A stretch of DNA of 44,148 nucleotides, from contig MHHS01000032.1 of the NCBI GenBank assembly GCA_001817115.1, positions 11,801-55,948 of the forward strand, written 5' to 3'. Positions 7,386 through 43,764 of this stretch are shown here, piece by piece (position 1 is the first letter of the stretch; every line of letters begins with the position of its first letter). Under the pieces are notes generated by a model, which searched no databases, was not told the origin of the DNA, and saw only the letters and a list, made by a program, of their open reading frames with translations. The position numbers and the translations under genes are program-made. This DNA comes from Candidatus Andersenbacteria bacterium RIFCSPHIGHO2_12_FULL_45_11b. Its GTDB lineage: Bacteria > Patescibacteriota > Andersenbacteria > UBA10190.

Positions 7386-8254
7386 TTTCGTTTCGAGATG
7401 TAGTACAGTAGCGGAGGCGCTACAAAGATAGAAGAATATACTCCGGTAAGCACACCGATAATGAGCGCAACGATGAACCAGCGGATAGATGCTCCGCCAA
7501 AAACCAGCGCTGCTGCTAGCGATAGCAGCGTGGTAAGCATGGTGTTTATTGATCGGCCCATCGTTGCAATAAGCGCGCGATCGATGACTTCTAAAAAGCT
7601 TTTTCCGCGGAGCGCTAGCCATTCTGATCGCAATCGGTCGAAGATAACGATCGTATCGTTTACGGAATATCCAAGAATGGCCAATTGGGCTGTTACGAAG
7701 AGCGTATCAATTTCTGCGCCCCATATTTTTCCAAACACCACAAAACATGCAGTTACTAAAAACAAGTCATGGATCAGCGCATAGATAGCGGCCACACCGA
7801 ATTTCCATGGCGCCATAAGCCCGCCTGTACTTCGGAAGGTGTATGCCAAATAGATGATCATGGCCACAAGCACCACGCCGATTGCCTGGATGGATTTAGT
7901 GCGAAGTTCTTTCCCGATAGTCGGGCCGATTTGCTCGAAGCTGATTTCGTTTTCACGCAAGATATTTGCCTCTCGAAGCGCAGTGATGATTTCTGCATGT
8001 TGCTTATCGTCAATTAATGATGTCTTAATGCGGATTGTTCCGTCTTGCGTTCCTTCTGTTTGAGCGGAAAGTTGGAATTTGCTCGCCAGTAGCTCCTTCG
8101 CTTTCGGCGCATCCTGCGCATTCGCCTGAATTTCAATAGATGATCCCCCGATAAAATCAATTCCCCAGTTCGGTTTTATAATTACAATAATGAGCGTGCT
8201 TGCAATAATTGTTGCTGCAGATATCGTCATCCAGATTTTAGGATTCTTCATCAT
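7382..8254 (-). CDS. secF: protein translocase subunit SecF
   Basis: I take the start at ATG 8254 (MMKNPKIWMTISAAT..), 2 nt after the secD stop; the track ORF is over-extended into secD. The SecD/SecF C-terminal 6-TM domain is present (YSVNDTIVIFDRLRSE). Confidence 0.9.
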   Translation of the reverse strand: MMKNPKIWMTISAATIIASTLIIVIIKPNWGIDFIGGSSIEIQANAQDAPKAKELLASKFQLSAQTEGTQDGTIRIKTSLIDDKQHAEIITALREANILRENEISFEQIGPTIGKELRTKSIQAIGVVLVAMIIYLAYTFRSTGGLMAPWKFGVAAIYALIHDLFLVTACFVVFGKIWGAEIDTLFVTAQLAILGYSVNDTIVIFDRLRSEWLALRGKSFLEVIDRALIATMGRSINTMLTTLLSLAAALVFGGASIRWFIVALIIGVLTGVYSSIFVAPPLLYYISKRK

Positions 8255-8256
8255 GG

Positions 8257-9606
8257 TTAGGTAGTGGGTTGTTTTATTGATTTTGCGCCAAGTAAAAATG
8301 ATGTATGCGTTTTTGGATTTGCAAATACAATATTGAGCATGCTTTTGCTGATTGCAATCGCTGTAAACATGGACAAAATAATGCCCAGAGAAAATGTAAG
8401 TGCGAATCCGCGAATAATAGACGTTCCGAACCCATATAACACAAACCCTGTAATAAGACTTGAGATGTTCGATGCGGAAATAGAGCTCCACGCCGCATTA
8501 AATCCTTCTTTTAGCGAGAATGGAACGGTTTTTCCATCTTTAATATTTTCCCGAAATCGTTCGAATATCAAAACGTTTGCGTCAACAGCCATTCCAATAG
8601 ACATAATAAATCCCGCAATTCCGGCAAGCGTAAGCGTTACAGGAATAAGCTTCATAATCGCGAAGAATAGTACTACGTAGATAAGTAATGCAATAGAAGC
8701 AATAACGCCCGGCAGTCGATAACGGAATATCAGCCAAGCAATTACGGCAATAATGCCTACGATGCCCGCTTTTATGCTTTTTGCGATTGCTGTTTGGCCG
8801 AGGCTTGGGTTAATAACACTCTGTCCGATAAGTGCAATTGGCACGGGCAATGCGCCGGAATTTAAATCTCTCACTTTTTGTTTTGCTTCTTCGAGAGTAT
8901 AGCTCCCAGTTATAACGGCTCGCCCATCTGGAATTGCGGATTGAACCGTTGGCGCTTGGTTTAGTTCCCCGTCAATGTAAATTGCCAGTGGCTTTCCGAT
9001 ATTTGCTTTAGTGATTTCTGCAAATAATTTTGTACCATCGCTGTCAAACAACAGCGTTATTTGAGGGGTGCCAGTTACTTGGTCGAATTCAACAGAAGCT
9101 TTTTTTAAATTTTTCCCGGAAAGTCCGGTTGGTATAAATGTGTCGCCGGTAATAGTGTTTGATCCGCTCTCCCCAAGCATTTTTTTAAGTTCATCGGTCG
9201 TTGGTTCTCTGCGAAAATCAAGCGTTGGCGTTTTTCCAATCTGCTGTTTTGCTTCTTCCGGATCCTGGACTCCCGCAAGCTCTACGATAACCCTATATTC
9301 TCCTTGTGCTACGCTCGTTTGGATCAACGGCTCTGATACGCCAAATGCATTTACTCTTCGCTCTATAACATCGCGTACGCCGGCTAGCGCTTCATTAGGG
9401 TCTTGTCCGTTTTTTGTATCCACATTCGCTCGATATTCCAGCCGAGTACCGCCTTTCAAATCAAGGCCGAGCTTTACGTTCAAATCCCTCGTAAATCCGC
9501 CAATTGCAATGCTCGGGTGCTTCGGGCTATCCACCCAAACAGCAAGACCTACTACAATTGCCAGCACAATACCCCATATCAGTGTTTTTCTCGTGCTCCG
9601 TAACAT
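8257..9606 (-). CDS. secD: protein translocase subunit SecD
   Basis: 449 aa. It has an N-terminal TM helix, a periplasmic domain (LGLDLKGGTRLEY) and a C-terminal 6-TM domain (AVDANVLIFERFRE). Confidence 0.9.
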   Translation of the reverse strand: MLRSTRKTLIWGIVLAIVVGLAVWVDSPKHPSIAIGGFTRDLNVKLGLDLKGGTRLEYRANVDTKNGQDPNEALAGVRDVIERRVNAFGVSEPLIQTSVAQGEYRVIVELAGVQDPEEAKQQIGKTPTLDFRREPTTDELKKMLGESGSNTITGDTFIPTGLSGKNLKKASVEFDQVTGTPQITLLFDSDGTKLFAEITKANIGKPLAIYIDGELNQAPTVQSAIPDGRAVITGSYTLEEAKQKVRDLNSGALPVPIALIGQSVINPSLGQTAIAKSIKAGIVGIIAVIAWLIFRYRLPGVIASIALLIYVVLFFAIMKLIPVTLTLAGIAGFIMSIGMAVDANVLIFERFRENIKDGKTVPFSLKEGFNAAWSSISASNISSLITGFVLYGFGTSIIRGFALTFSLGIILSMFTAIAISKSMLNIVFANPKTHTSFLLGAKSIKQPTT

Positions 9607-9628: not shown

Positions 9629-10195
9629 TTATAGGTTTTCTGCAAGAGTTATGTCATCCCGGGCTTGATCCGGGATCCACGTAGATTCCGGCTCCCCACT
9701 TCGCCCAAGGGCTTCGCGGGGCGCAGCGAAGGCCGAAATGATAGATAGCTTATGTTCGATGATCTTATACGTATCGTTAAATACGAATTTGCCCTCAAAT
9801 TTTTGGCTTCGCAAGAACATCGGCATCCAAAAAATGTCATCTGCCCACATCGCATCATATGGAATTTCGTTTATAGAAAACCATTGCGGTTTCATCTCGT
9901 CTGTTTCTATCGGTTCTCCGAAAAAGTTTGTTGCGCGAAAAATATGTACCTGCCATATTTGTTCTTCACCCGGCAGGGTAAAATCCAGTACGCCAACTTT
10001 TTCGGTTTCGGCAACGCTAATACCGCATTCTTCCAGCACTTCTCGCTTCGCTGCTTCTTCAATATCTTCGCCTTCTTCAACTTTTCCGCCAAATCCGTTC
10101 CATTTCCCCTCGCCTTTCCCCCGCTTCGCCAAGCCAAGCAAAATCTTATCGCCTTGTTGAATTAAGCACAGTGTGAGGAGTTTTTTGTCAGACAT
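9629..10195 (-). CDS. Nudix hydrolase (MTH1/8-oxo-dGTPase-like) with a repeat-encoded C-terminal tail
   Basis: The Nudix box is GGKVEEGEDIEEAAKREVLEECGI. The last ~35 codons (..IISAFAAPREALGRSGEPESTWIPDQARDDITLAENL) are read from the family-A element at 9652-9743. Confidence 0.8.
   Translation of the reverse strand: MSDKKLLTLCLIQQGDKILLGLAKRGKGEGKWNGFGGKVEEGEDIEEAAKREVLEECGISVAETEKVGVLDFTLPGEEQIWQVHIFRATNFFGEPIETDEMKPQWFSINEIPYDAMWADDIFWMPMFLRSQKFEGKFVFNDTYKIIEHKLSIISAFAAPREALGRSGEPESTWIPDQARDDITLAENL
9652..9743. repeat. family-A palindromic interspersed element (copy A1, degenerate right end)
   Basis: Sequence: TGTCATCCCGGgcttgatCCGGGATCCACGT...GATTCCGG...GGCCGAAATGATA. It has the same architecture as the copies at 18163, 19041, 27328 and 38192. 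Confidence 0.75.
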
Positions 10196-16339: not shown

Positions 16340-18946
16340 TTATTTAATCCGCTCGTAAAACGTTATGGTATTAGATCCGTTAGAAATACCGTGGACGGAT
16401 TTCCAGTTCGCTTTGAGATCGTTATTGATATCGTCATATTCATTTAAGTATGAAAATTGAGTTTGCGCATCCAAAACAAACCAGTGCGAATCTTTAAAGG
16501 CCTGCACGAGGTTTTTCGTAGGCGGCAAAAACGTCTCGATGCGCGTTGGATTCGTCCGTGTAAATTCGTACGCATACCAGCGCGGATGAGAGATATTCAA
16601 AGCTGTTTGGTATCCGGCAAGGTATGGGATAAGCGTTGCGCCGGTAAATACTGATTCCCCGGTCGGAATATTTTGTTGCATCCATGCAGCAGCATCGTAT
16701 GCAGCCTGTTGCGAGAATGTTCCTGTGTGTTGAAATGAGTACGTAATAAAACTGGAAGCGGTTGCTGCCCATACGGAAATAATCAGGAATATCAAAAGCG
16801 ACGCGTATTTCAAAACGAGTGTTTTAGTGTGAAGGCTTCGCGCAATAAATGCTTCAAGCCCCACGCCAGCGATAATAGTAAGCGGCGGAATGAACTCGGA
16901 AATATAGTTTGCATGGAATTTGATCCACTTCGCGTAAAAGAACATCATGCTGCCAATCCATATGAGGCCGATGAGGCCACGCGTCCATGCGTTGCCTCTC
17001 CCTCCCCTCCCAGCCTCCCCTCGGGCAGGGGAGGAGTCGCGTTCTCTCCCCCTTACCAAGGGGGAATTGGAGGGGGTCAGATGCGGCAAGAAAATTGCTC
17101 CTACAAGCACCGCCCCAAACAGCCACCACAGTTCCGTAATCCCATATTTCATAAACTTTGCCCCTTCATATTGCGAGAAAAAATCCCAAGCCCACCAGAA
17201 GATGCTTAAAGGAATAAGCCATGCAAAGCGCGATAACCACGACCAGACCCCCTCGCGCTCCCCATTAGTAAGGGGGAGAAATAACGACTTAATCGCATCT
17301 TGCAAATAAAACCCAATACCCAGCATCGACAATAAAATTATCGGCAATGACTCTCTGAAAAATGGCGTCATGCCTTTGAGCGAATACTCACGTATCTGCT
17401 CAACTTGATCAGGATCGATGCTTGAAATGCCGTCCTCTGCGGAATTGATTCCAAGCGCTTCTGTAATACCTACGCCACCATATACGCTATATGCGTAGGT
17501 GAGAAACAAGGCGAGCACTCCCAAAAATCCTATTCCAACAAACACCGTATTTCTTAACCGTGCATTCCAGCTTTTCGATTGCGTAATGAGAAGTAGGATA
17601 ACCGTAAGCCCGAGCGCCAGCATGCTTTTGCGCGATGCTACGGCAAGTCCGATAATGCAACCGGCGAGGATGAGCCATTTTCGAGAAGCTTGCTTTTCTC
17701 GCAACGCATAAGCTAGTAATGCTATTCCAGACACGCCGAAGAACATGGCAACCGGTTGTGTGTGAACATATATCGTTGAAACAACTGCTGTCCCCATGCA
17801 TGCCCATAGCGCTGCAGAAATAAGCGCTGCTCGCGTTGTCCAAATACTTCTGACTAATAAAAATATTGGATACACGAGCGCAGAACCCGCGATAATAGAC
17901 GATAGGCGCCCTGCGAATGCGGTATGGCCAAGAATAGCTTCCCACAGCGCTATCCACGCAATCACGAGAGGCGCTTTCACATACCCGTCCCCTCCTGCAA
18001 AATGCCCGTGCAGTATCGACCATGCGTCATATAAATAATTTCCCTCATCGTCTGTAAATGGCAATGATAATGCGTAAAATATTCTTATAGTAACCGCGAT
18101 GATAGTCAGTACAAGAAGAATAATCCACGGCTTTATTTGTAATTTGCCAATATACCAGTCGCTGTCATCCCGGACTTGATCCGGGATCCACGTCGTCGAT
18201 TTTCTGGATTCCGGCTCGGAGGCCGGAATGACACGGCGAAATAATAACCAACATAAAAATATGCAGAAAATGCTCGGCAAAAATGCACCGGTCCATAGCG
18301 TGTACATGTGACGATTGTCTTGCCATGTATTTATAAACGTATGAATTGCGTTGCTGATGCTATGGTAGATGAATGTTCCTAGCGGCACCGAATATAGCGT
18401 TTGAAATGCAACGTCAATACTTTGCTTTCCAGATTTTTGAATAATGTCATCTGTAGCTGGCGCATTGTTAGATGCGCGGATGATATATGCCGTACCTTGT
18501 AAATATGTATCTTTATTATTCAAATCAATTGCAATCGCATTGCCTTTAACGCTTTCCGGAGAGTCAACCAAAAAGAAATATGTTTTCCCTTTGGAGTTTG
18601 CAATTGGAGGAAAAGAGAAGTTGTAAAATTGGTTATCACCGAACTTGCTTGCAGGAACAGATACTGTGCGAATATCGTTGCCCGATCGTACAGAATCTCG
18701 AAGATGTAATACAACAGGATGTGTATTATCGCGCCCGGAATATGTGGCAATCATTACTCCAATTCCAGCAAGGTCGTTCCGCTGTGCGACGATTGTTTGA
18801 CCAATAGATGAAGTACCGGTCAGTTCGCCGGAATTCAAGCTATGCTCTTCTTGCCTCTCTCCTACTTCCGGAACGTGAATAGCAACCAGCGCAATGGCAA
18901 TAATGAAAGCAACCCCAAAAGCAGTCTTTTTCCGCGATATTTGCAT
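16340..18946 (-). CDS. large membrane glycosyltransferase: N-terminal module fused to a GT39/ArnT-PMT-like polytopic domain
   Basis: 868 aa. From about residue 265 it shows the typical GT-C start (WIILLVLTIIAVTIRIFYALSLPFTDDEGNYLYDAW), followed by many TM helices and a C-terminal soluble domain. It contains three in-frame repeat insertions, listed as separate repeat features. Confidence 0.7.
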   Translation of the reverse strand: MQISRKKTAFGVAFIIAIALVAIHVPEVGERQEEHSLNSGELTGTSSIGQTIVAQRNDLAGIGVMIATYSGRDNTHPVVLHLRDSVRSGNDIRTVSVPASKFGDNQFYNFSFPPIANSKGKTYFFLVDSPESVKGNAIAIDLNNKDTYLQGTAYIIRASNNAPATDDIIQKSGKQSIDVAFQTLYSVPLGTFIYHSISNAIHTFINTWQDNRHMYTLWTGAFLPSIFCIFLCWLLFRRVIPASEPESRKSTTWIPDQVRDDSDWYIGKLQIKPWIILLVLTIIAVTIRIFYALSLPFTDDEGNYLYDAWSILHGHFAGGDGYVKAPLVIAWIALWEAILGHTAFAGRLSSIIAGSALVYPIFLLVRSIWTTRAALISAALWACMGTAVVSTIYVHTQPVAMFFGVSGIALLAYALREKQASRKWLILAGCIIGLAVASRKSMLALGLTVILLLITQSKSWNARLRNTVFVGIGFLGVLALFLTYAYSVYGGVGITEALGINSAEDGISSIDPDQVEQIREYSLKGMTPFFRESLPIILLSMLGIGFYLQDAIKSLFLPLTNGEREGVWSWLSRFAWLIPLSIFWWAWDFFSQYEGAKFMKYGITELWWLFGAVLVGAIFLPHLTPSNSPLVRGRERDSSPARGEAGRGGRGNAWTRGLIGLIWIGSMMFFYAKWIKFHANYISEFIPPLTIIAGVGLEAFIARSLHTKTLVLKYASLLIFLIISVWAATASSFITYSFQHTGTFSQQAAYDAAAWMQQNIPTGESVFTGATLIPYLAGYQTALNISHPRWYAYEFTRTNPTRIETFLPPTKNLVQAFKDSHWFVLDAQTQFSYLNEYDDINNDLKANWKSVHGISNGSNTITFYERIK
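16994..17078. repeat. family-B G/C-tract double-hairpin element (B1), inside the GT39 ORF
   Basis: Two hairpins are present: CCTCCCCtcgggcaGGGGAGG (17014-17034) and TCCCCCttaccaaGGGGGA (17047-17065). They are translated as PSNSPLVRGRERDSSPARGEAGRGGRGN. Confidence 0.7.
17248..17280. repeat. family-B single hairpin (B2), inside the GT39 ORF
   Basis: The hairpin CTCCCCattagtaaGGGGAG is translated as PLTNGEREGVW. Confidence 0.55.
18163..18233. repeat. family-A palindromic element (A2), inside the GT39 ORF
   Basis: Sequence: TGTCATCCCGGacttgatCCGGGATCCACGTCGTCGATTTTCTGGATTCCGGctcggagGCCGGAATGACA. It is translated as VIPASEPESRKSTTWIPDQVRDDS. Confidence 0.85.
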
Positions 18947-18975: not shown

Positions 18976-19110
18976 TGTCATTGCGCGTCGCTTCCCCTCT
19001 CCTGTTCTGGGAGAGGGCGGGGGGGAGGGGCGTTCGGCGGTGTCATCCTGAACTTGATTCAGGATCCAGAAAATGGTGCCGTGGATCACAGCTCACGGGC
19101 CGGGATGACA
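18976..19110. repeat. composite intergenic repeat cluster (families C + B + A)
   Basis: Three pieces abut: TGTCATTGCGCGTCGC (C), CCCTCTCCtgttctgGGAGAGGG plus a G-tract (B3), and TGTCATCCTGaacttgattCAGGATCCAG...GGGCCGGGATGACA (A3, 19041-19110). The cluster lies between the rpsI stop and the GT39 start. Confidence 0.8.
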
Positions 19111-25299: not shown

Positions 25300-25386
25300 G
25301 CTAGTTTCCTTCTCCTTGCCAAGGAAAAGGGGGATGAGGTGATAATAAAGACACGGCGTGGATTCCGGATCAAGTCCGGAATGACA
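25300..25386. repeat. composite repeat (family-B-like hairpin plus a family-A right half, A4)
   Basis: TCCTTCTCCTTGCCAAGGAAAAGGGGGATGAGG is followed by ACGGCGTGGATTCCGGatcaagtCCGGAATGACA. The A half overlaps the last codons and the TGA stop of alaS. Confidence 0.7.
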
Positions 25387-27327: not shown

Positions 27328-27426
27328 TGTCATCCCGGCCTCTGAGCCGGGATCCAGAAATAACGACGTGGATTCCGGGTCCAGCCTTCGCCAAGGCTAC
27401 GGCCGGCAGGCAAGCCCGGAATGACA
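27328..27426. repeat. family-A palindromic element, long variant (A5)
   Basis: Sequence: TGTCATCCCGGcctctgaGCCGGGATCCAG...ACGTGGATTCCGGG-tccagccttcgccaaggctacggccggcaggcaag-CCCGGAATGACA. It is intergenic, 30 nt upstream of the alaS ATG. Confidence 0.85.
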
Positions 27427-27432
27427 AATTAT

Positions 27433-28050
27433 TCAATCCGGCTGCTGGGTGACCATCGTATCTTGGTTATTCGGCAATATGGTTGGCGTAAATTGCAGGG
27501 AATCCCGATAAGGGTTCGGCCATGAGGCATGAATAGGGCCTTCAAATTTCTCCATAAAATCGCGCGCTTGCTCAATTGTTTTCTTTTCAATAGCAATTTC
27601 GTGAGCAAGGTTAAGTATAAGCGTATTCGTGTGCTCATTCTCGCAAAACGCAGTCATTTCCCCGCGTGTTTTATCGAGCAGGATGCTGCCGTCGAATGCT
27701 GCAATTTCATCATGTTTATCTGTCGGAATCATTGCGTCTACTGTTTGCTCGAGCAGATCGATATGCGGATGCGGCACATTATGGCGCACTCCTTCGCGAT
27801 GCAATACGGTTCGTTTCCATGGGCCGTTGTAGTGCCATATCAGCATCGTCTGCGTGGCTTCGTGCGGCATGCCATAGGAATGAATAAGGATACTTGCCAT
27901 TTTGCGGGAAGCGTTCGGCCAGCTGGAAATAAGATCCTGTACTGCAGATCCTTGAATGCGAGGTGCCTTAATTCTTGTCATGCCATGCATACCTTCACTA
28001 TTCATATATTGCAAGAGTCTGTCAATGCTGCAGGCGAAGTATTTCGACAA
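27433..28050 (-). CDS. hypothetical protein (orphan); start uncertain
   Basis: 205-aa ORF whose first codon is TTG; the internal ATGs at codons 16, 21 and 24 are alternative starts. I recognise no domain. Confidence 0.45.
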   Translation of the reverse strand: MSKYFACSIDRLLQYMNSEGMHGMTRIKAPRIQGSAVQDLISSWPNASRKMASILIHSYGMPHEATQTMLIWHYNGPWKRTVLHREGVRHNVPHPHIDLLEQTVDAMIPTDKHDEIAAFDGSILLDKTRGEMTAFCENEHTNTLILNLAHEIAIEKKTIEQARDFMEKFEGPIHASWPNPYRDSLQFTPTILPNNQDTMVTQQPD

Positions 28051-28774: not shown

Positions 28775-30628
28775 TTAGATTTTCGGCGGTTTAGGCGGTG
28801 TGTAATTCGAAATAGGGTTTATTTTTGACGGAGCGATTGGCGGTAGAGGAACGCTTGTTTGTTGCTCGTCTCGCGATTCTCTCCCACCCCCTCTAACTCC
28901 CCCTCGGGCAGGGGGAGAAACTCTCTCCTTTTTCCGCTTATCGAAACATTCTTTGCAGAATACTTCCTTTTCCGGATCTGGTTTGAATGGCACTTCTGTT
29001 TGTTTTCCGCAATTCGAACAAATTGCTGGGTAAAGCTGTATAGTCTTTTTTGGTATTCGCGCCTCCTCAACACCTGGTGTTCTACCGTTAACACCAGGTG
29101 TTTTCCCGGCGCTTGCATCGTCCTTCTTCCCTCCCAATAATGTCGATAAATCCGTAATCACTTCCTGTTTTGCAGGAGAAATGACGACGTCTTCCAGTTC
29201 GTTTTCTTTGATAGGTTGAGGTTGTGTTTGCTGAGGTTTATTTAGCGTGTTTATAGGACGCGAGTTTTGCTGTAGTTGGCTATTTTGTGGTTGTCCTTGC
29301 TTGCCAAGGAAAATCTGTGGCTTAGTGGATTGCCGACCATCCTCTTGCACGTCCATTGTTGAGCTGCTCCACCGCGCAATTTTATCTTCAATTTCTTTTC
29401 GAGGAGACCCGTACCGCTCTCTGGATACGCGCAAAACTTTTTCTTTGCTATTATATGTATCTGATACAGGCGGAATAGTTTCCATTGAGAACGGCGCACT
29501 TGTAGCTCCCTGAATCATGAGCTTGATGTATGCATTGTATTTATCCAAATTTACTAAATCGGTCTGCGTAAAATACGGCATAAATTCTTTTTCCAGATAT
29601 TCTGCATCGAATGCGCCGACTCGAAAGGAGATGATAGTACCCACGTTTCCGAATACAGCATCGCGAACAACTTCCTCCATCTGCGTGATATATTGGTGGG
29701 CGATAATAAGGTTTAAGCGATATTTGCGGGCTTCAGACAAAATGGTCGCGAACGATTCCGTGGCAAAATTTTGGAATTCATCCACGTATAAATAGAAATC
29801 TTTTCGGTCGGCTTCCGGAATGCTTGCCCTATCCATTGCGGCCAGCTGGAGCTTAGTGATAAGCATGGCGCCTAAGAGGGCGGAGTTATCTTCCCCAATT
29901 CTTCCCTTTGATACGTTGATGAGAAGAATTTTTCCGTTATCCATAATATCTTTCATATCAATGGTGCTTTTCGGCTGGGCGACGATATTGCGAATAATAG
30001 AGGAGCTTAAAAATTGCCCCACTTTATTTTGGATCGGGGATATCGCCTCGCTTCGGAATCGTTCGTTGTAGTTTGCGAATTCATTTTCCCAAAAGGCCTT
30101 TACTACAGGGTCCGATATATAATCAACGACCTTTTTCCGATACCCTTTATCGGAAAGCATGCGCATGATTCCAAGCATAGTACTCGAGGGGTAATCAAGA
30201 AGCGCTAAAATCACGTTGCGTAAAATATACTCCAAACGAGGCCCCCAAGAATCGGCCCAAATTTTCTTTAACGAGCTTACCAGGCCAGATGCGACGAGGT
30301 ATTTGTATTGCGGATCGACAGATTCAAGCGGATTAAACGCTACGGGGAAATCAATATCTGCAGGGTCGAAATATACCACGTCATTGATTCTTTCTGGCGG
30401 AATGGCATCTGCTATTTTCTCCGCAACGTCGCCATGGGGGTCTACGAGAGCAAGGCCTCGCCCCATTTTTACGTCCTGTAAAATCATGTTTTCCAAAAGC
30501 GTAGTTTTTCCTACTCCAGTTTTTCCAATCACGTATACGTGGCGTCGGCGATCGTCCGTGTAAATGCCGAATGGCCTGCGTTGGTGTCGGAAATTTGTTT
30601 GTCCTATGACGGTTATCTCTTCAGGCAT
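28775..30628 (-). CDS. VirD4/TraD/TraG-like (T4SS coupling-protein-like, FtsK-HerA superfamily) P-loop ATPase fused to a C-terminal CxxC-x17-CxxC zinc ribbon
   Basis: 617 aa. It has Walker A (GKTGVGKTT), Walker B (FYLYVDEFQNF) and ARKYRLNLIIAHQYITQM, then a Q/P-rich linker and CSNCGKQTEVPFKPDPEKEVFCKEC (exactly 17 residues between the CxxC pairs). There is no N-terminal TM segment. Confidence 0.75.
   Translation of the reverse strand: MPEEITVIGQTNFRHQRRPFGIYTDDRRRHVYVIGKTGVGKTTLLENMILQDVKMGRGLALVDPHGDVAEKIADAIPPERINDVVYFDPADIDFPVAFNPLESVDPQYKYLVASGLVSSLKKIWADSWGPRLEYILRNVILALLDYPSSTMLGIMRMLSDKGYRKKVVDYISDPVVKAFWENEFANYNERFRSEAISPIQNKVGQFLSSSIIRNIVAQPKSTIDMKDIMDNGKILLINVSKGRIGEDNSALLGAMLITKLQLAAMDRASIPEADRKDFYLYVDEFQNFATESFATILSEARKYRLNLIIAHQYITQMEEVVRDAVFGNVGTIISFRVGAFDAEYLEKEFMPYFTQTDLVNLDKYNAYIKLMIQGATSAPFSMETIPPVSDTYNSKEKVLRVSRERYGSPRKEIEDKIARWSSSTMDVQEDGRQSTKPQIFLGKQGQPQNSQLQQNSRPINTLNKPQQTQPQPIKENELEDVVISPAKQEVITDLSTLLGGKKDDASAGKTPGVNGRTPGVEEARIPKKTIQLYPAICSNCGKQTEVPFKPDPEKEVFCKECFDKRKKERVSPPARGGVRGGGRESRDEQQTSVPLPPIAPSKINPISNYTPPKPPKI
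28876..28930. repeat. family-B hairpin element (B5) inside the ATPase 3' end
   Basis: The hairpin CTCCCCCtcgggcaGGGGGAG has the same loop as B1. It is translated as RVSPPARGGVRGGGRE, immediately after the zinc ribbon. Confidence 0.65.
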
Positions 30629-30636
30629 AGCAATGG

Positions 30637-31914
30637 TTATGCGTAGGGCAAATTAGCAGGAGGGTTCTTGTGCCCAGACTTTGCACGGGCAACGCCTGGA
30701 GCGGAAACGTATTTTACAGGGAAGTGGTAAATAGTTGCCAGCTCTTCTGCATTGAGCATTTGTCCAGAATCTACACCGAAGAAATCTCTCCATTGAAAGT
30801 TTAGAAAGGCGTTGCGTTCTCGCAGGTATCGTCGGCGATCTTTCATGATAAAACTAGGGCCGTTTGTTTTTGTTTCCCCGTCTGGCTTGAAGGAGTTTAA
30901 GTGCGATGCTGCAAATTGTTTGAATATGCCGAAGCCTCGAGCGATATTCGGTTTCTTTAGCTGGCCTACCGGAGCAATATGCACGATGCGGATTTTTGTT
31001 TTATAGCAATTTCCTGAAATCTTTTGCAAAATACTTTTCATCTTTGCGTCATCTACCGGATTGAAAAAACGGAGCACTTTTTCTTCTTTCTTATCTTCTA
31101 GCACAATCGGTCCGCTGAAAATAGCTCTGAAAAATTCACCCGGCAAGGCAGACATCAATGCTTGTGCGTTCTCCCACATGCCTGGCTTAGCTTTCTTCGC
31201 CTGGCCGGAAATTTCAGCGATGCGCTGTTCTCCTTCTTGCTCCCATTTCTTGATTCGTTTGCCGTCAACGGGCCGAACTAATACCTGCACCCAAAACTCT
31301 TCCCCAGGTTCTACGTTCGTGAGCGCTTCTACGATAATTTGCATCGGGTCTACAAACGGAATTTCTTCTGCCAAATTTGCTTCGAATTCCCGGTATGTTT
31401 TTATCGGAAGGATATCATCTTCAGTGAGCACAACGTCGCCCCCCCACATTTCAAATGTAGTGCGCAAACCTTCTACGTTGTACCGCTGGGTGTAATCCTC
31501 AACTTCTTGAATATCTGCTTTCGGGTATTGCGCATAAATGATTCCCTCGAACAATTGCCGGTGCGCCGTGGGCACCACGACAACGAATTTTGCGGAATGT
31601 TGCGTGCAATAAATTTCAAAGCTGGCCCAGGGTTCTAAATATCCATCGAAGTATTTTTCATTGAAATCGGGGCTTTTATGCATTCCACCCATCACCTCGA
31701 AGATAACTTCCATTGATCGGGGAGTTTCTTCCGACTCTTCCGGCAAAGTAACCTGGTAGAACGTCCATTCAATAGCGCTTACGTAGTCGATCATTTTTAG
31801 GAGGAGGTACGTTTTCCATGCGATCCACATAATCATCCAAACAACAAGGAGCCAGCCGAACGTGAGCATGGTTGGCCCGAAGTCCCTGGCAAAGTCAGCG
31901 AAAGAATAACCCAT
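30637..31914 (-). CDS. hypothetical membrane protein (N-terminal TM hairpin plus a ~370-aa cytoplasmic domain), partner of the T4CP-like ATPase
   Basis: 425 aa. The TM region is MLTFGWLLVVWMIMWIAWKTYLLL. Its stop lies 8 nt upstream of the ATPase ATG. I cannot name a domain with confidence. Confidence 0.6.
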   Translation of the reverse strand: MGYSFADFARDFGPTMLTFGWLLVVWMIMWIAWKTYLLLKMIDYVSAIEWTFYQVTLPEESEETPRSMEVIFEVMGGMHKSPDFNEKYFDGYLEPWASFEIYCTQHSAKFVVVVPTAHRQLFEGIIYAQYPKADIQEVEDYTQRYNVEGLRTTFEMWGGDVVLTEDDILPIKTYREFEANLAEEIPFVDPMQIIVEALTNVEPGEEFWVQVLVRPVDGKRIKKWEQEGEQRIAEISGQAKKAKPGMWENAQALMSALPGEFFRAIFSGPIVLEDKKEEKVLRFFNPVDDAKMKSILQKISGNCYKTKIRIVHIAPVGQLKKPNIARGFGIFKQFAASHLNSFKPDGETKTNGPSFIMKDRRRYLRERNAFLNFQWRDFFGVDSGQMLNAEELATIYHFPVKYVSAPGVARAKSGHKNPPANLPYA

Positions 31915-36656: not shown

Positions 36657-37016
36657 TTACTCTACGGTCTCGACGCGGCAGAATCTGTTGAACTCAGGAC
36701 AGTTCATACTCACAACTCGATGCAATGCAGTATGCTTGAATTTGTCGTAAAGATAGTTAATCACTGCAAATGCCGTCAGTTCAAGTCGCAGACGTTGTTC
36801 GTACCCCGGTTTATTCGCAAGTTCAATTTGTATGACTGCCAAGTGTTTGTATAGCCAGTTTGTGTCGCTATACGGCATATTGGATACATTTTGCCTTGCT
36901 TGGTTAAGGGCGTTATGGCGATCTCGTTGATAGCCCGAACCCTCTTTTCGTAATATCCAAGCCCCATCAAAGCGTTCAAGGTATTTCGAAATCGGCGAAA
37001 CCGTTTGTGTGGACAT
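36657..37016 (-). CDS. hypothetical protein (orphan) inserted in the dcw cluster
   Basis: I take the start at ATG 37016 (MSTQTVSPISKYLERF..), preceded by GAGGG; the track ORF starts 2 codons earlier at TTG. I recognise no domain. Confidence 0.45.
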   Translation of the reverse strand: MSTQTVSPISKYLERFDGAWILRKEGSGYQRDRHNALNQARQNVSNMPYSDTNWLYKHLAVIQIELANKPGYEQRLRLELTAFAVINYLYDKFKHTALHRVVSMNCPEFNRFCRVETVE

Positions 37017-37071
37017 CTGCAAGTTCCCTCTATTTTTTACTACAATGTGCGATCAGTGAAAACCCGAAGCA

Positions 37072-37142: not shown

Positions 37143-37535
37143 TTACTGGATTGGATGATTCTCCAAAAGCTCTCGCACCGTAGGGCAATGGCAGGCTATT
37201 CCAATTTGCTGAATTATTTTACGGGCATACACAGAGCCAGGTGTCGGTTCAAGGTATGCTCTAATAAACATGGATAATAGTACGCATTGAGTATAGTATT
37301 GTTCCGTTTCATCGGGATTTGTTCGGAGTATTTCAACGCTTTCCGCTGCTCCCTCGATAAGATTCAGCAAAACATTCTGGTCTTCAATTCTTGCCTCGAT
37401 AATCGGTAGGGCGCGTTTGATGTTAAAATACACAGAAATTTCTAGGCGCCCGCCGTGCATTTTTGATTGTGAAACTCTATTCCACAAAACGCTTCTCATC
37501 GCTTTACCGAAGTGCGGAGACAATTGAATCGCCAT
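37143..37535 (-). CDS. hypothetical protein (orphan) inserted in the dcw cluster
   Basis: 130 aa. The ATG is preceded by AAGGAG with 7-nt spacing. I recognise no domain. Confidence 0.5.
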   Translation of the reverse strand: MAIQLSPHFGKAMRSVLWNRVSQSKMHGGRLEISVYFNIKRALPIIEARIEDQNVLLNLIEGAAESVEILRTNPDETEQYYTQCVLLSMFIRAYLEPTPGSVYARKIIQQIGIACHCPTVRELLENHPIQ

Positions 37536-37587: not shown

Positions 37588-37615
37588 ACTATACTCTCCT
37601 ATCGCAATTGTTCAA
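37588..37615 (-). promoter_or_regulatory. candidate promoter of the 130-aa orphan, overlapping the murD stop codon
   Basis: The minus strand has TTGAAC (37615..37610), a 16-nt spacer, and TATAGT (37593..37588). Confidence 0.4.
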
Positions 37616-39059
37616 CAGTGGAAATAAATGCATCCCCTCGATCGAATTCATGGAGAAATAATCCAAAGCTAGTAGCTCCTGGGGAAAGGATTACCGCATC
37701 GCCCGCTTGAGCTAATTTTTGCGCAAGTATTACTGCTTCTTGCATAGTAGCTATGTCATGCATTTGCGCGCTGGTATGCGAACGAATCGCTTGCTGCATG
37801 CGGAGCGTCGCTGTTCCTGGGAGCCAGATGAGATGCTTTAGATTTTTATGCTCAGATATAGCATGCGCAAGACTTGTAAATTCAAGAGCCTTATCAGAAC
37901 CCCCAAGAATAAGGATGAGAGGTTTCTCTTGCATCGTGGTAAGCGCGGCTATCGTCGCATCGGGCATTGTTGCCGTCGTGTCGTTAATATATTGCACGCC
38001 GTTCAATTCTCGGACCAATTGCATGCGATGTTGCAGCTGCGGAATTGAGCGTACCGTTTGCTGTATGGTTTCTGGCGATGCGCCAAACAATACTGCGAGC
38101 AATATGGCCGGCAACTTGTTGCGAAGCTCATGCGGCGATGTGTGGGGGATGTCGGAGACTTTGCAGATTTTTGCAGATGTTTTGCTGGTGTTGTTATGCC
38201 CGACCTGATCGGGCATCCACGTCGTCGATTCCTGGATTCCCGCCTTCGCGGGAATGACATTGCCACAGACACTATCATTATCAATCCAAATCCCTCGCAA
38301 ATTACTTGGCAATGGCTTTAGTGAATACCAGTATAATTCCCCTCGTACATCCTGTTCCCATGTTCGGATAATTTCATCATCATAATTTAAAATCGCAATG
38401 TCGTTTTCTGTTTGATCTGCAATAATTTGTTTTTTTGCCTGAATATAATCCTCGTACGAATTGTATGTATTCAAATGGTCTTGATATATGGATGTGCATA
38501 TTGCAATGTGCGGGCTGGCATGAACTTCTTGCAAGGCTTCTAAGCGCCAGCTAGAAAGTTCAAAGACGATGGGAGCAGAGGAGAGGAGTGTTAGCGTCCC
38601 CAACGGCGATACGCCGTCTACGCCAACTGCTATTGTCTCTGAAATAATGCTTTTTAATATGTGATAGATTGCATGCGACGTAGTTGTTTTGCCTTTCGAT
38701 CCGGTAATGCCGATAATGCGTTTTCTGCCGACTTGATCGAAGAATATATTGCTGTCCATTACAACGGGGATATTTTTTTCACGGGCCTTTTGTAGAATAA
38801 CGGCTTTGCGCGGAACTGCCGGATTTCGCAAAATCATATCAACGCCATCTAAACTAATTTCATCTTGACTACCAAATAGATATTCTATACCAGGTATATT
38901 TGAAAGTTTTTGAATAGACGTTTCTAGTTGTTCTCGTGATTTTGTATCTGAAACAGTAATGCGCGCGCCTTGCGATGCAAGCCATGTAATATTTCCCACT
39001 GCTCCACCATGTAAACCTAATCCGAGAACGAGGACATGCTTGCCGGAAAAAGAACCCAT
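37599..39059 (-). CDS. murD: UDP-N-acetylmuramoylalanine--D-glutamate ligase with an in-frame repeat insertion
   Basis: I prefer the start at ATG 39059 (MGSFSGKHVLVLGLGLHGG), 1 nt after the mraY stop; the track start at 39077 is a TTG. Mur ligase motifs are present (GITGSKGKTTTSHAIYHIL, NDTTATMPDATIAAL). Residues VIPAKAGIQESTTWMPDQVGHNN are encoded by repeat A6. Confidence 0.9.
   Translation of the reverse strand: MGSFSGKHVLVLGLGLHGGAVGNITWLASQGARITVSDTKSREQLETSIQKLSNIPGIEYLFGSQDEISLDGVDMILRNPAVPRKAVILQKAREKNIPVVMDSNIFFDQVGRKRIIGITGSKGKTTTSHAIYHILKSIISETIAVGVDGVSPLGTLTLLSSAPIVFELSSWRLEALQEVHASPHIAICTSIYQDHLNTYNSYEDYIQAKKQIIADQTENDIAILNYDDEIIRTWEQDVRGELYWYSLKPLPSNLRGIWIDNDSVCGNVIPAKAGIQESTTWMPDQVGHNNTSKTSAKICKVSDIPHTSPHELRNKLPAILLAVLFGASPETIQQTVRSIPQLQHRMQLVRELNGVQYINDTTATMPDATIAALTTMQEKPLILILGGSDKALEFTSLAHAISEHKNLKHLIWLPGTATLRMQQAIRSHTSAQMHDIATMQEAVILAQKLAQAGDAVILSPGATSFGLFLHEFDRGDAFISTVEQLR
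38192..38259. repeat. family-A palindromic element (A6) inside murD
   Basis: Sequence: TGTTATGCCCGacctgatCGGGCATCCACGTCGTCGATTCCTGGATTCCCGccttcgCGGGAATGACA. The core CCACGTCGTCGATT..CTGGATTCC is nearly identical to copy A2. Confidence 0.85.
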
Positions 39060-39060
39060 A

Positions 39061-40128
39061 TTACGAACCCATTCCAAGCAAGCCGATCACTAGCCCGATG
39101 CTCGCAGATACGGCAGACAAAATCCAGAACCGCATCGTTACTTTTGTCTCCGGCCATCCGAGCGCTTCAAAATGATGATGAATGGGCGTAGAAAGAAACA
39201 CTTTTGAGTGAAATAGCTTTTTCGATGTCATTTGAATGATGACAGATAAAGATTCTATGACCAGGGGAAATGCAATAATCGGGAGCACGAGCGCAGAATT
39301 CGTAAGCATCGCGATAATTCCCAACGTAGTGCCTAGGCTCATGGCGCCCGTATCGCCCATAAAGAATCGTGCGGGATATACGTTAAACCATAAAAAAGCT
39401 AGAATGCCGCCTCCTATTGCGGCGCAGAGCATAGAAAGTTCAATTCTGCCCATCGCAAATGCTAACGCAGTGTATGCTCCGAAGGAAAACAGCAAAACGC
39501 CGCCTGCCAGGCCATCTAGCCCGTCTGTTTCGTTCACAGAAAATGCAGTAGAAACGATGACGAGCATGAATAGAGGAATGTACCACCAGCCGATTTCAAA
39601 ATCCCCGATTCCCGGAACGTGTATAGTGCTCCAATCAAGCTTAGTGTAAAACCACCACGCGCCGAATGCTGCAACCATTACATAGAGCAAAAGGCGATGC
39701 TTCATGCGCAGCCCACCGCCGTGCGGGCCTTTTCCGCGTACATTCAAGTAATCGTCAACAAGCCCCACGAGCGCAGAAGCCACAAGCGCGCCGAGCGGAA
39801 GCAGGGTTTGCGGTCTGCTTAAAAAGCTTAGCGCATGCGTAAAGCTGGATGGAAATAATTCGTTGAGCACCCAAAAGAGCAGTGCAAGCAGAGCTACTGT
39901 ACCCCAAATAATAATGCCTCCGCCCACAGGCGTACCCGCCTTTTTTGCGTGAAGTTTAGAGTATAATGGCGTGTTCCCTGTATTTCTGATATTCTTTCCG
40001 AATTTATAAATATAGAGCACGTTGGTGAGTGCCGGTGTCAAAATAAACGCAAGTAAAAACGTCAGCGTGCCGATTCCTACAACGCGAGTGACGTTTACTA
40101 CTAAATATGGATCCGAAAATGCAATCAT
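39061..40128 (-). CDS. mraY: phospho-N-acetylmuramoyl-pentapeptide transferase MraY
   Basis: I prefer the start at ATG 40128, which forms an ATGA overlap with the upstream stop; the track start at 40134 is a GTG. The protein is polytopic with MraY motifs (VDDYLNVRGKG, NETDGLDGLAGG, GDTGAMSLG, HHHFEALGWPE). Confidence 0.94.
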   Translation of the reverse strand: MIAFSDPYLVVNVTRVVGIGTLTFLLAFILTPALTNVLYIYKFGKNIRNTGNTPLYSKLHAKKAGTPVGGGIIIWGTVALLALLFWVLNELFPSSFTHALSFLSRPQTLLPLGALVASALVGLVDDYLNVRGKGPHGGGLRMKHRLLLYVMVAAFGAWWFYTKLDWSTIHVPGIGDFEIGWWYIPLFMLVIVSTAFSVNETDGLDGLAGGVLLFSFGAYTALAFAMGRIELSMLCAAIGGGILAFLWFNVYPARFFMGDTGAMSLGTTLGIIAMLTNSALVLPIIAFPLVIESLSVIIQMTSKKLFHSKVFLSTPIHHHFEALGWPETKVTMRFWILSAVSASIGLVIGLLGMGS

Positions 40129-43656: not shown

Positions 43657-43756
43657 CCTTCCCCCCAATTGGGGGGAAGGAGGGGATGGGGGCAGAACAT
43701 GCGGCATCACGTTTCACCAGCCCCCACCCTAACCCTCCCCCTGATTAGGGGGAGGG
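43657..43756. repeat. family-B three-hairpin element (B7)
   Basis: Hairpin 1 is CCTTCCCCCCaattGGGGGGAAGG (43657-43680). Hairpin 2 is GGGGGC..26 nt..GCCCCC (43688-43725). Hairpin 3 is CCCTCCCCCtgattaGGGGGAGGG (43733-43756). The architecture matches B6 with different stem sequences. Confidence 0.8.
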
Positions 43757-43764
43757 GAAATTCG

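Follow-up and report, generated by a model that had tools for sequence, protein, structure and literature searches.

The CGTC-tagged repetitive extragenic palindromic (REP) sequences described by Di Nocera, De Gregorio and Rocco in 2013 (PMC3733652) are composed of an unpaired CGTC or TGTC tag (with a CCTC variant), a stem of 8-9 bp starting with AT (the first two pairs being A-T and T-A), a loop of 4-5 nt (with variants in some families) and an unpaired 3-nt tail of consensus CCA. They are found mostly as head-to-head dimers with the tags directed outward, and in several species dimers situated in frame within genes encode 20-30 amino acids. Family CGTC-1 corresponds to dRS3 of Neisseria and to the Rickettsia palindromic element (RPE) RPE-6 of R. 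conorii, and CGTC-4 to RPE-4; no transposase dedicated to the CGTC repeats was reported (PMC3733652). Here we describe a 68-bp element that belongs to this superfamily by anatomy and sequence and resides in frame within the essential gene murD of a bacterium of the candidate phyla radiation (CPR; Patescibacteria), in a 44-kb stretch of DNA from Candidatus Andersenbacteria (44,148 nucleotides of contig MHHS01000032.1, 45.6% G+C; hereafter the window).

The same repeats were recently revisited from the side of an enzyme that recognizes them (PMC11893778, 2025). In that work dRS3 was extended to the 28-nt NTS sequence (CGTCATTCCCGCGMAVGCGGGAATCYRG) and to a degenerate "Ssn-related motif" (SRM). 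SsnA, a GIY-YIG protein of about 94 amino acids, was shown to bind the hairpins and to cleave just 5' of the motif, acting on single-stranded DNA only; ssn genes (cd10448 GIY-YIG) are often flanked by the motif, and motif-rich genomes usually carry ssn. Symbionts, including Rickettsia and Wolbachia, are enriched in SRM, and in Neisseria the NTS repeats and SsnA jointly modulate how transforming DNA is integrated (PMC11893778). This report mentions neither Patescibacteria nor in-frame intragenic copies, and no description of repeats of this family in Patescibacteria/CPR was found in the literature searched. The original prediction for this DNA, which knew of no formal account of such elements in CPR-like genomes, holds in this respect, but both the family and its candidate enzyme, Ssn, had already been described (PMC3733652, PMC11893778). 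What is new is the Andersenbacteria-like CPR host, murD as the host gene, and the recurrence of hairpin insertions in the same MurD loops (see below); the repeat family itself is known, and the present case extends a known phenomenon to a new host.

The murD gene (UDP-N-acetylmuramoylalanine--D-glutamate ligase; 37599-39077, minus strand) is an intact open reading frame (ORF) of 492 amino acids with the domains MurD-like_N, Mur_ligase_M and Mur_ligase_C. It is placed in a conserved cell-wall/division cluster (mraY-murD-...-ftsW-murG-murC), and the gene order around it matches that of relatives. The closest protein matches of its product are MurD proteins of Candidatus Andersenbacteria, and the columns that are invariant across the MurD family alignment have been kept. 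The element occupies positions 38192-38259 (minus strand; murD-strand sequence TGTCATTCCCGCGAAGGCGGGAATCCAGGAATCGACGACGTGGATGCCCGATCAGGTCGGGCATAACA) and does not interrupt the frame, in agreement with the original prediction. Its product is VIPAKAGIQESTTWMPDQVGHN(N), where VIPAKAGIQESTTWMPDQVGHN represents MurD residues 274-295 and the complete insert of 23 amino acids spans residues 274-296; a predicted tryptic peptide is AGIQESTTWMPDQVGHNNTSK.

Structurally, the murD element consists of two CGTC-type hairpin units joined head to head, with the tags outward. Unit 1 (38233-38259, minus strand) reads TGTC / ATTCCCGC / GAAG / GCGGGAAT / CCA and has the CGTC-1 geometry, i.e. an 8-bp stem and a 4-nt loop; together with the next base (38232-38259, minus strand) it matches the 28-nt NTS consensus at 27 of 28 positions. 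Unit 2 (38192-38219, plus strand) reads TGTT / ATGCCCGA / CCTGA / TCGGGCAT / CCA, with an 8-bp stem, a 5-nt loop and a tag mutated from C to T; its stem is one compensatory pair apart from that of the homologous unit (ATCCCCGA/TCGGGGAT) of a relative, L002. The units are separated by a spacer (38220-38232; CGTCGTCGATTCC on the plus strand) that is near-identical in a second copy at 18163. Folded as DNA, the element forms two separate 8-bp hairpins (-18.8 kcal/mol, z = -4.3), a value equalled by none of 200 shuffled sequences, in keeping with the two internal hairpins noted in the original prediction. By its anatomy the element is a member of the CGTC-tagged REP superfamily, alias SRM. A search of the entire window against Rfam at gathering thresholds produced no match.

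The murD copy is one of several in the window. A unit finder identified 11 hairpin units, arranged as five head-to-head dimers, all with the tags outward, and one singleton. Seven of the units are perfect, against 0.0 in 300 dinucleotide-preserving shuffles, and the published SRM pattern is matched three times (at 9652, 18163 and 38232), with 0.09 matches expected; these numbers are far above chance. All five further copies listed in the original prediction are real, with extents that required correction. The dimer at 18163-18233 (minus strand) lies in frame in a PMT_2/GT39-like glycosyltransferase ORF (16340-18946), where it encodes VIPASEPESRKSTTWIPDQVRDD (residues 239-261); it has in common with the murD copy the core CCACGTCGTCGATT..CTGGATTCC, which confirms the near identity proposed for these two copies. 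The dimer at 9652-9743 (minus strand) forms the C-terminal tail of a Nudix ORF (residues 151-182 of 188, the NUDIX domain match covering residues 10-119), and one of its units has an expanded loop with a nested hairpin and a TATC tag. An intergenic dimer at 19041-19110 starts 5 nt past the rpsI stop codon; its right unit is degenerate, its length is 1 modulo 3, and it contains stops in five of the six frames.

The two remaining copies are associated with alaS, which is flanked by units on both sides. The first, originally taken for a half copy at 25352, is a single unit (25359-25386, minus strand) placed over the 3' end of the gene, where the TGA of its CTTGA loop is the alaS stop codon (...ENLSFRT*); it provides the last four codons and the stop (SFRT*). 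The second is a dimer (27328-27426; one expanded loop, length 0 modulo 3) between an upstream ORF (27433-28050) and the probable alaS start. It is situated just upstream of the probable ATG and is thus not coding, while the mechanically called alaS ORF, with its start at 27436, reads through it.

Among the units of the window, the tag is TGTC in 9 of 11 (TGTT at 38192 and TATC at 9743 in the others) and the tail is CCA in 10 and CTA in one. Loops are of 4-5 nt in six units, of 6 nt in two, and of 35-39 nt with nested hairpins in two, and one unit is degenerate. In an alignment of 12 units, drawn from the window and from a pair of related contigs and all with an 8-bp stem starting with AT, the stem is paired in 99% of the cells and compensatory double changes occur in five of the eight pairs, which none of 500 shuffles reached. 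This covariation indicates that the conserved feature is the hairpin together with its unpaired tag and tail, rather than a given stem sequence. Units with expanded loops (26-39 nt) were observed both in the window (9682-9743 and 27369-27426) and outside it (7446-7503 in L027, 2256-2315 in L036 and 3329-3377 in L057). They retain the tag, the 8-bp stem and the tail, at least some contain a further nested hairpin, and the expanded loops look like insertions into the loop of a pre-existing unit.

Like CGTC-1 and CGTC-2 (PMC3733652), the window units combine the same tag, AT stem and CCA tail with a head-to-head dimeric arrangement, conserved spacers and the lack of an adjacent transposase. CGTC-REPs are located mostly just downstream of ORFs, sometimes providing the stop codon, as in the window, and a minority lie in frame inside genes (tRNA synthetase genes included) as dimers encoding 20-30 amino acids (PMC3733652). 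The differences concern the Patescibacteria/CPR host, the 6-nt or hugely expanded loops of some units and the short spacers (about 13 nt). The likeness to NTS/SRM is seen in unit 1 of murD, with its 27 of 28 matching positions, and in the three window units that fit the SRM pattern; a difference is that neither the window nor the CPR loci examined yielded an ssn gene. The Neisseria NTS repeats cluster around genes and have been shown to modulate transformation.

The RPEs, chosen as the precedent in the original prediction, are a related case, but the relationship was understated, since RPE-4 and RPE-6 are CGTC-4 and CGTC-1, i.e. members of the same superfamily (PMC3733652); the murD element is related to RPEs through this superfamily and is not itself an RPE. 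In both cases hairpin repeats have been inserted, without loss of frame, into essential genes of a host-dependent bacterium with a reduced genome, and they appear to be accommodated as additional loops, but the phylum (an Andersenbacteria-like CPR lineage) and the reading frames are different. The classic RPE-1 is longer than 100 bp and represents a different sequence family, and RPE-bearing proteins have been shown to be expressed in Rickettsia.

Comparison with related genomes identifies the murD segment as an insertion specific to the lineage. The 23 residues are missing from all 27 aligned MurD orthologues (58-73% identity), and a scan of the best 120 MurD matches for repeat-derived peptide motifs returned a single protein, P0001, that of the window lineage itself. 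In a syntenic locus (L001, 541-kb contig) the murD site is empty and 21 kb contain no unit at all. The relative L002, whose MurD is 71% identical, has no SRM unit in murD but carries, in frame in a GT2 gene, the same pair of unit types as the murD element; the L001 orthologue of this GT2 is 64 amino acids shorter, lacking the segment. A related dimer is present in frame in a PMT_2 gene of a groundwater contig (L124), so that relatives carry such elements at different sites. This contig was the sole match in a metagenome scan for the dimer junction ATCCACGTCGTCGATTNNCTGGAT, a scan too specific for statistics, and the exact junction subfamily is rare in the scanned metagenome collection. The 68-bp segment is thus a lineage-specific insertion and not ancestral MurD sequence. 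Misassembly is ruled out by an ENA contig from an independent assembly (L125, 12.6 kb, 99.95% identical to the window), in which the insert is present with the same junctions.

In an AlphaFold model of the window MurD, built on the orthologue alignment (mean predicted local distance difference test score, pLDDT, 85), the insert appears as a low-confidence coil between strands 269-273 and 302-306. The block pLDDT values over residues 271-300 are 69, 52 and 48, with 96 before and 91 after this region. Solved MurD chains align on either side of residues 243-302, not through this stretch, which holds the insert. The model thus places the insert in a loop between two confident strands, which may be a surface loop.

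The repeat family is widespread. The exact 27-mer of murD unit 1 (TGTCATTCCCGCGAAGGCGGGAATCCA) occurs unchanged at at least 120 loci (L004-L123) of GTDB species genomes, including Proteobacteria, Planctomycetota, Chloroflexota, Bacteroidota, Nitrospirota, Cyanobacteria, Spirochaetota, Actinomycetota, Omnitrophota and others, as well as a Rickettsia endosymbiont and 14 loci labelled Patescibacteria, Falkow-, Uhr-, Morani-, Nomura- or Saccharibacteria. Over all phyla, about one element in six at these loci is embedded in a long ORF, whereas most are situated outside such ORFs; intragenic copies are thus a minority, in line with the published work. The 27-mer was also found in 48 IMG/VR contigs, in two of which a strong Ssn-like ORF adjoins it (L130, 922-1263; L155, 8631-8981), so phages or prophages may serve as a vehicle, although contamination of the viral set would also fit. 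Plasmid and megaplasmid records of Azospirillum and Sphingobium contain identical copies of nearly all of the 27-mer.

At 8 of the 120 loci listed, an Ssn-like GIY-YIG ORF of about 95 amino acids adjoins a 27-mer unit, and in one case (L029) units are present on both sides of the gene. These ORFs were detected with an Ssn-like consensus as a seed, followed by a profile, and the recovered ORFs were confirmed as GIY-YIG by Pfam. The published association of Ssn with the motif is thereby reproduced in other phyla. Among the Ssn-like proteins encoded next to the 27-mer in Beta- and Deltaproteobacteria and Rickettsiaceae, mutual identity is 53-63%, which suggests horizontal spread of the nuclease-motif pair.

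The reading that we favour, and consider probable, is that an SRM/CGTC-REP dimer entered murD and persists there as selfish or neutral DNA filtered by selection, not as a new functional part of MurD. A copy would have landed in the central domain, where one beta-strand turns into the next, and it would have been kept because the net insertion (about 23 codons) preserves the frame, the frame in use is free of stops, and a floppy loop would spare the fold. Copies would spread by way of single-stranded DNA hairpins, on which an enzyme specific for hairpins, encoded in another part of the genome, would act; the strongest candidate is an Ssn-type GIY-YIG single-strand nuclease, an enzyme that cuts just 5' of such motifs. 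A head-to-head dimer would offer one cleavable unit per strand, with the tag at the outer edge, so that the cuts would bracket the element. Selection would then retain only frame-preserving, stop-free insertions in permissive loops.

Several points weigh against this reading. Ssn was demonstrated to bind and cut hairpins, not to move them (PMC11893778), and no ssn homologue was detected in the window (Ssn profile against all six-frame ORFs; Pfam), nor in about 100 kb from 14 unit-bearing Patescibacteria loci. No CPR-named Ssn appeared among the best 120 of at least 8000 matches of a profile search, a result that is uninformative for this lineage. The mobility of the element is inferred, no insertion or excision having been directly observed; the boundaries of the insertion cannot be fixed to the nucleotide, since even the closest empty site shares only about 70% identity. 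Translation of the insert and activity of the MurD protein are sequence-based predictions, and the insert may have a role at the level of the host, e.g. in recombination or mRNA structure.

A small GIY-YIG protein of another subtype (MYYTYSIKS...; E of only 4e-4 against the Ssn profile) is encoded at 3401-3685 of L101, about 1 kb from SRM units, in a metagenome-assembled genome of an unclassified "bacterium"; it may be unrelated to the repeats.

The competing explanation that survives best, although we give it a much smaller share of probability, dispenses with a dedicated enzyme and attributes the spread to template switching, to break repair from other copies, or to homologous or illegitimate recombination following DNA uptake. 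The CPR data examined revealed no partner enzyme, and in other lineages hairpins of unrelated families have entered the same MurD loops. The occurrence of the 27-mer across a great many phyla and on predicted viral contigs, with near-whole copies in plasmid records, makes a horizontal supply of copies plausible. However, it is the tag and the CCA tail, and not the stem alone, that are conserved, which points to recognition by a protein, and units and ssn are strongly associated in other phyla (PMC11893778 and the present data).

Less likely still, in our judgement, is that the insert is a functional, selected addition to MurD or its mRNA, acting as a regulatory loop, a translational pause or a signal controlling recombination or transformation. 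The modulation of transforming-DNA integration by NTS and SsnA in Neisseria (PMC11893778) speaks for such a role, and folding of the mRNA in the region of the insert is somewhat more stable than that of shuffled sequences (z = -2.6). Against it stand the absence of the insert from all aligned orthologues and the low model confidence at the insert. In addition, the window and L125 differ at six positions in all, of which two fall within the 68-bp element (binomial P = 4e-4). Both are transitions (window 38247 and 38252, corresponding to L125 5372 and 5367); one weakens the stem (C-G to T-G) and replaces Pro with Ser, and the other is in a loop. This enrichment of differences between near-identical assemblies suggests weak constraint on the insert; its cause may be relaxed constraint, mutation associated with the hairpins, or conversion by other copies.

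The reading frame might likewise be taken as a sign of function, since all five CPR coding copies (murD, PMT_2 and Nudix in the window, GT2 in L002 and PMT_2 in L124) are read in one frame, GTC-ATY-CCN, and have a length of 2 modulo 3. The original prediction had noted the common frame of the three window copies, which is correct, with the qualification that the Nudix copy lies in a C-terminal tail beyond the domain; its suggestion that only one frame is tolerated is weak. For a length of 2 modulo 3, the TGA of ...ATGACA always terminates one frame, and a further frame is closed by the CTTGA loop; three of the six frames are open, and two of these three correspond to the observed frame, so that five of five gives P of about 0.13. 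Frame preference as a sign of selection was rejected, being not significant at this value. Stop-codon filtering accounts for the pattern, and no special tolerated frame is needed. Other frames are also in use: in the IleRS gene of a Rickettsia endosymbiont (L021) a dimer of the same 27-mer units is read as CHSREGGNP...LDSRLRGND, in a different frame (the same ORF contains a second dimer made of other units), and the alaS unit of the window is read in a third frame, where it provides the stop codon.

We attach equally little weight to the possibility that the element is a GTAG-type REP or BIME moved by a REP-associated tyrosine transposase (RAYT). The general architecture is the same, i.e. short tagged hairpins arranged as inverted dimers, mostly intergenic and without target duplication (PMC3733652), and for both a single-stranded hairpin intermediate has been proposed. 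However, the tag is TGTC/CGTC rather than GTAG, the stem follows other rules, and no RAYT is associated with the repeats: no Y1/HUH transposase domain is present among the window ORFs scanned, and no RAYT gene bordered by CGTC repeats emerged from the 2013 survey (PMC3733652).

The chances of a classical MITE, i.e. a deleted insertion sequence with terminal inverted repeats that is moved in trans by a DDE transposase, are slimmer still. The element is small and present in several copies, and its ends resemble imperfect inverted repeats (TGTTATGCCCG versus TGTCATTCCCG, 9 of 11 positions), but these apparent inverted ends are the tags and stems of two independent units, and single units occur at 25359-25386 and at many other loci. 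Inspection of the flanks revealed no target-site duplication at any of the seven copies checked, which argues against a classical MITE, and neither an insertion sequence with matching ends nor a transposase was found in the window (a Pfam scan of its ORFs, which agrees with the original prediction on the latter point, revealed no GIY-YIG gene either). Finally, although repeats can seed misassembly and reduced genomes accumulate pseudogenes, an assembly artefact or chimera, or a decaying murD pseudogene, is hardly credible in view of the identical junctions in two independent assemblies, the intact ORF with all three Mur ligase domains and its invariant columns, and the gene order conserved with relatives.

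A second, unrelated family of in-frame hairpin repeats was observed in the same genomes. Its units have the form CTCCCCC-N3-7-GGGGGAG (e.g. CTCCCCCTCGGGCAGGGGGAG) and are found in the window at 16996-17289, 28879-28920 and 43724-43758, with copies in the PMT_2/GT39 ORF (within residues 553-651) and, towards the C terminus, in a TraG/VirD4-like ORF (residues 570-584). The family is also present in murD of other Andersenbacteria (L002, gene at 7544-9010; L174, residues 276-316 and 159-170; L175, residues 290-318 and 168-182), where it occupies the same MurD loop as the SRM dimer and another loop near residue 165. These two MurD loops thus stand out as recurrent hot spots of insertion.

More speculatively, Patescibacteria might represent a second "Rickettsia-like" case, in which at least two unrelated hairpin families, the SRM/CGTC units and the CTCCCCC...GGGGGAG units, colonise surface loops of essential proteins, repeatedly the same MurD loops, perhaps driven by an Ssn-like or other hairpin enzyme and perhaps tied to the DNA uptake of episymbionts, e.g. 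by controlling the integration of single-stranded DNA. We regard this proposal as tentative and more probably wrong than right; if true, CPR genomes would offer a natural setting in which to study the origin of protein insertions from selfish hairpins.

No new type of element or mechanism is revealed by these results. They do demonstrate that NTS/SRM (CGTC-REP) repeats reach the ultra-small CPR genomes, where they reside inside essential genes such as murD without breaking them. A reduced-genome symbiotic lineage thereby joins the repeat-rich ones, in agreement with the reported enrichment in symbionts (PMC11893778). For annotation, peptides such as VIPAKAGIQ, WIPDQVRDD and DSRLRGND in CPR proteins should be recognized as repeat-derived; such peptides can lead to errors in alignments and phylogenies, and in the calling of domain boundaries, starts and stops. 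The two MurD loops hit by different hairpin families amount to a small natural experiment on the sites at which a protein tolerates insertions.

Two further features of the gene neighbourhood deserve mention. Between ftsW and murD the window contains two small ORFs (36657-37022 and 37143-37535, 121 and 130 amino acids) without a Pfam match. Two small unannotated genes are found at the same position in L002 and L125, L001 has ORFs of 236 (on the opposite strand) and 129 amino acids there, and in L174 ftsW follows directly after murD. In the region 28775-31914, an ORF for a TraG/VirD4-like coupling protein with a treble-clef zinc finger is located beside an ORF of 425 amino acids, whose counterpart in relatives is annotated as DUF8128; the position of this pair, beside the cell-wall cluster, is kept in L001 and L002.

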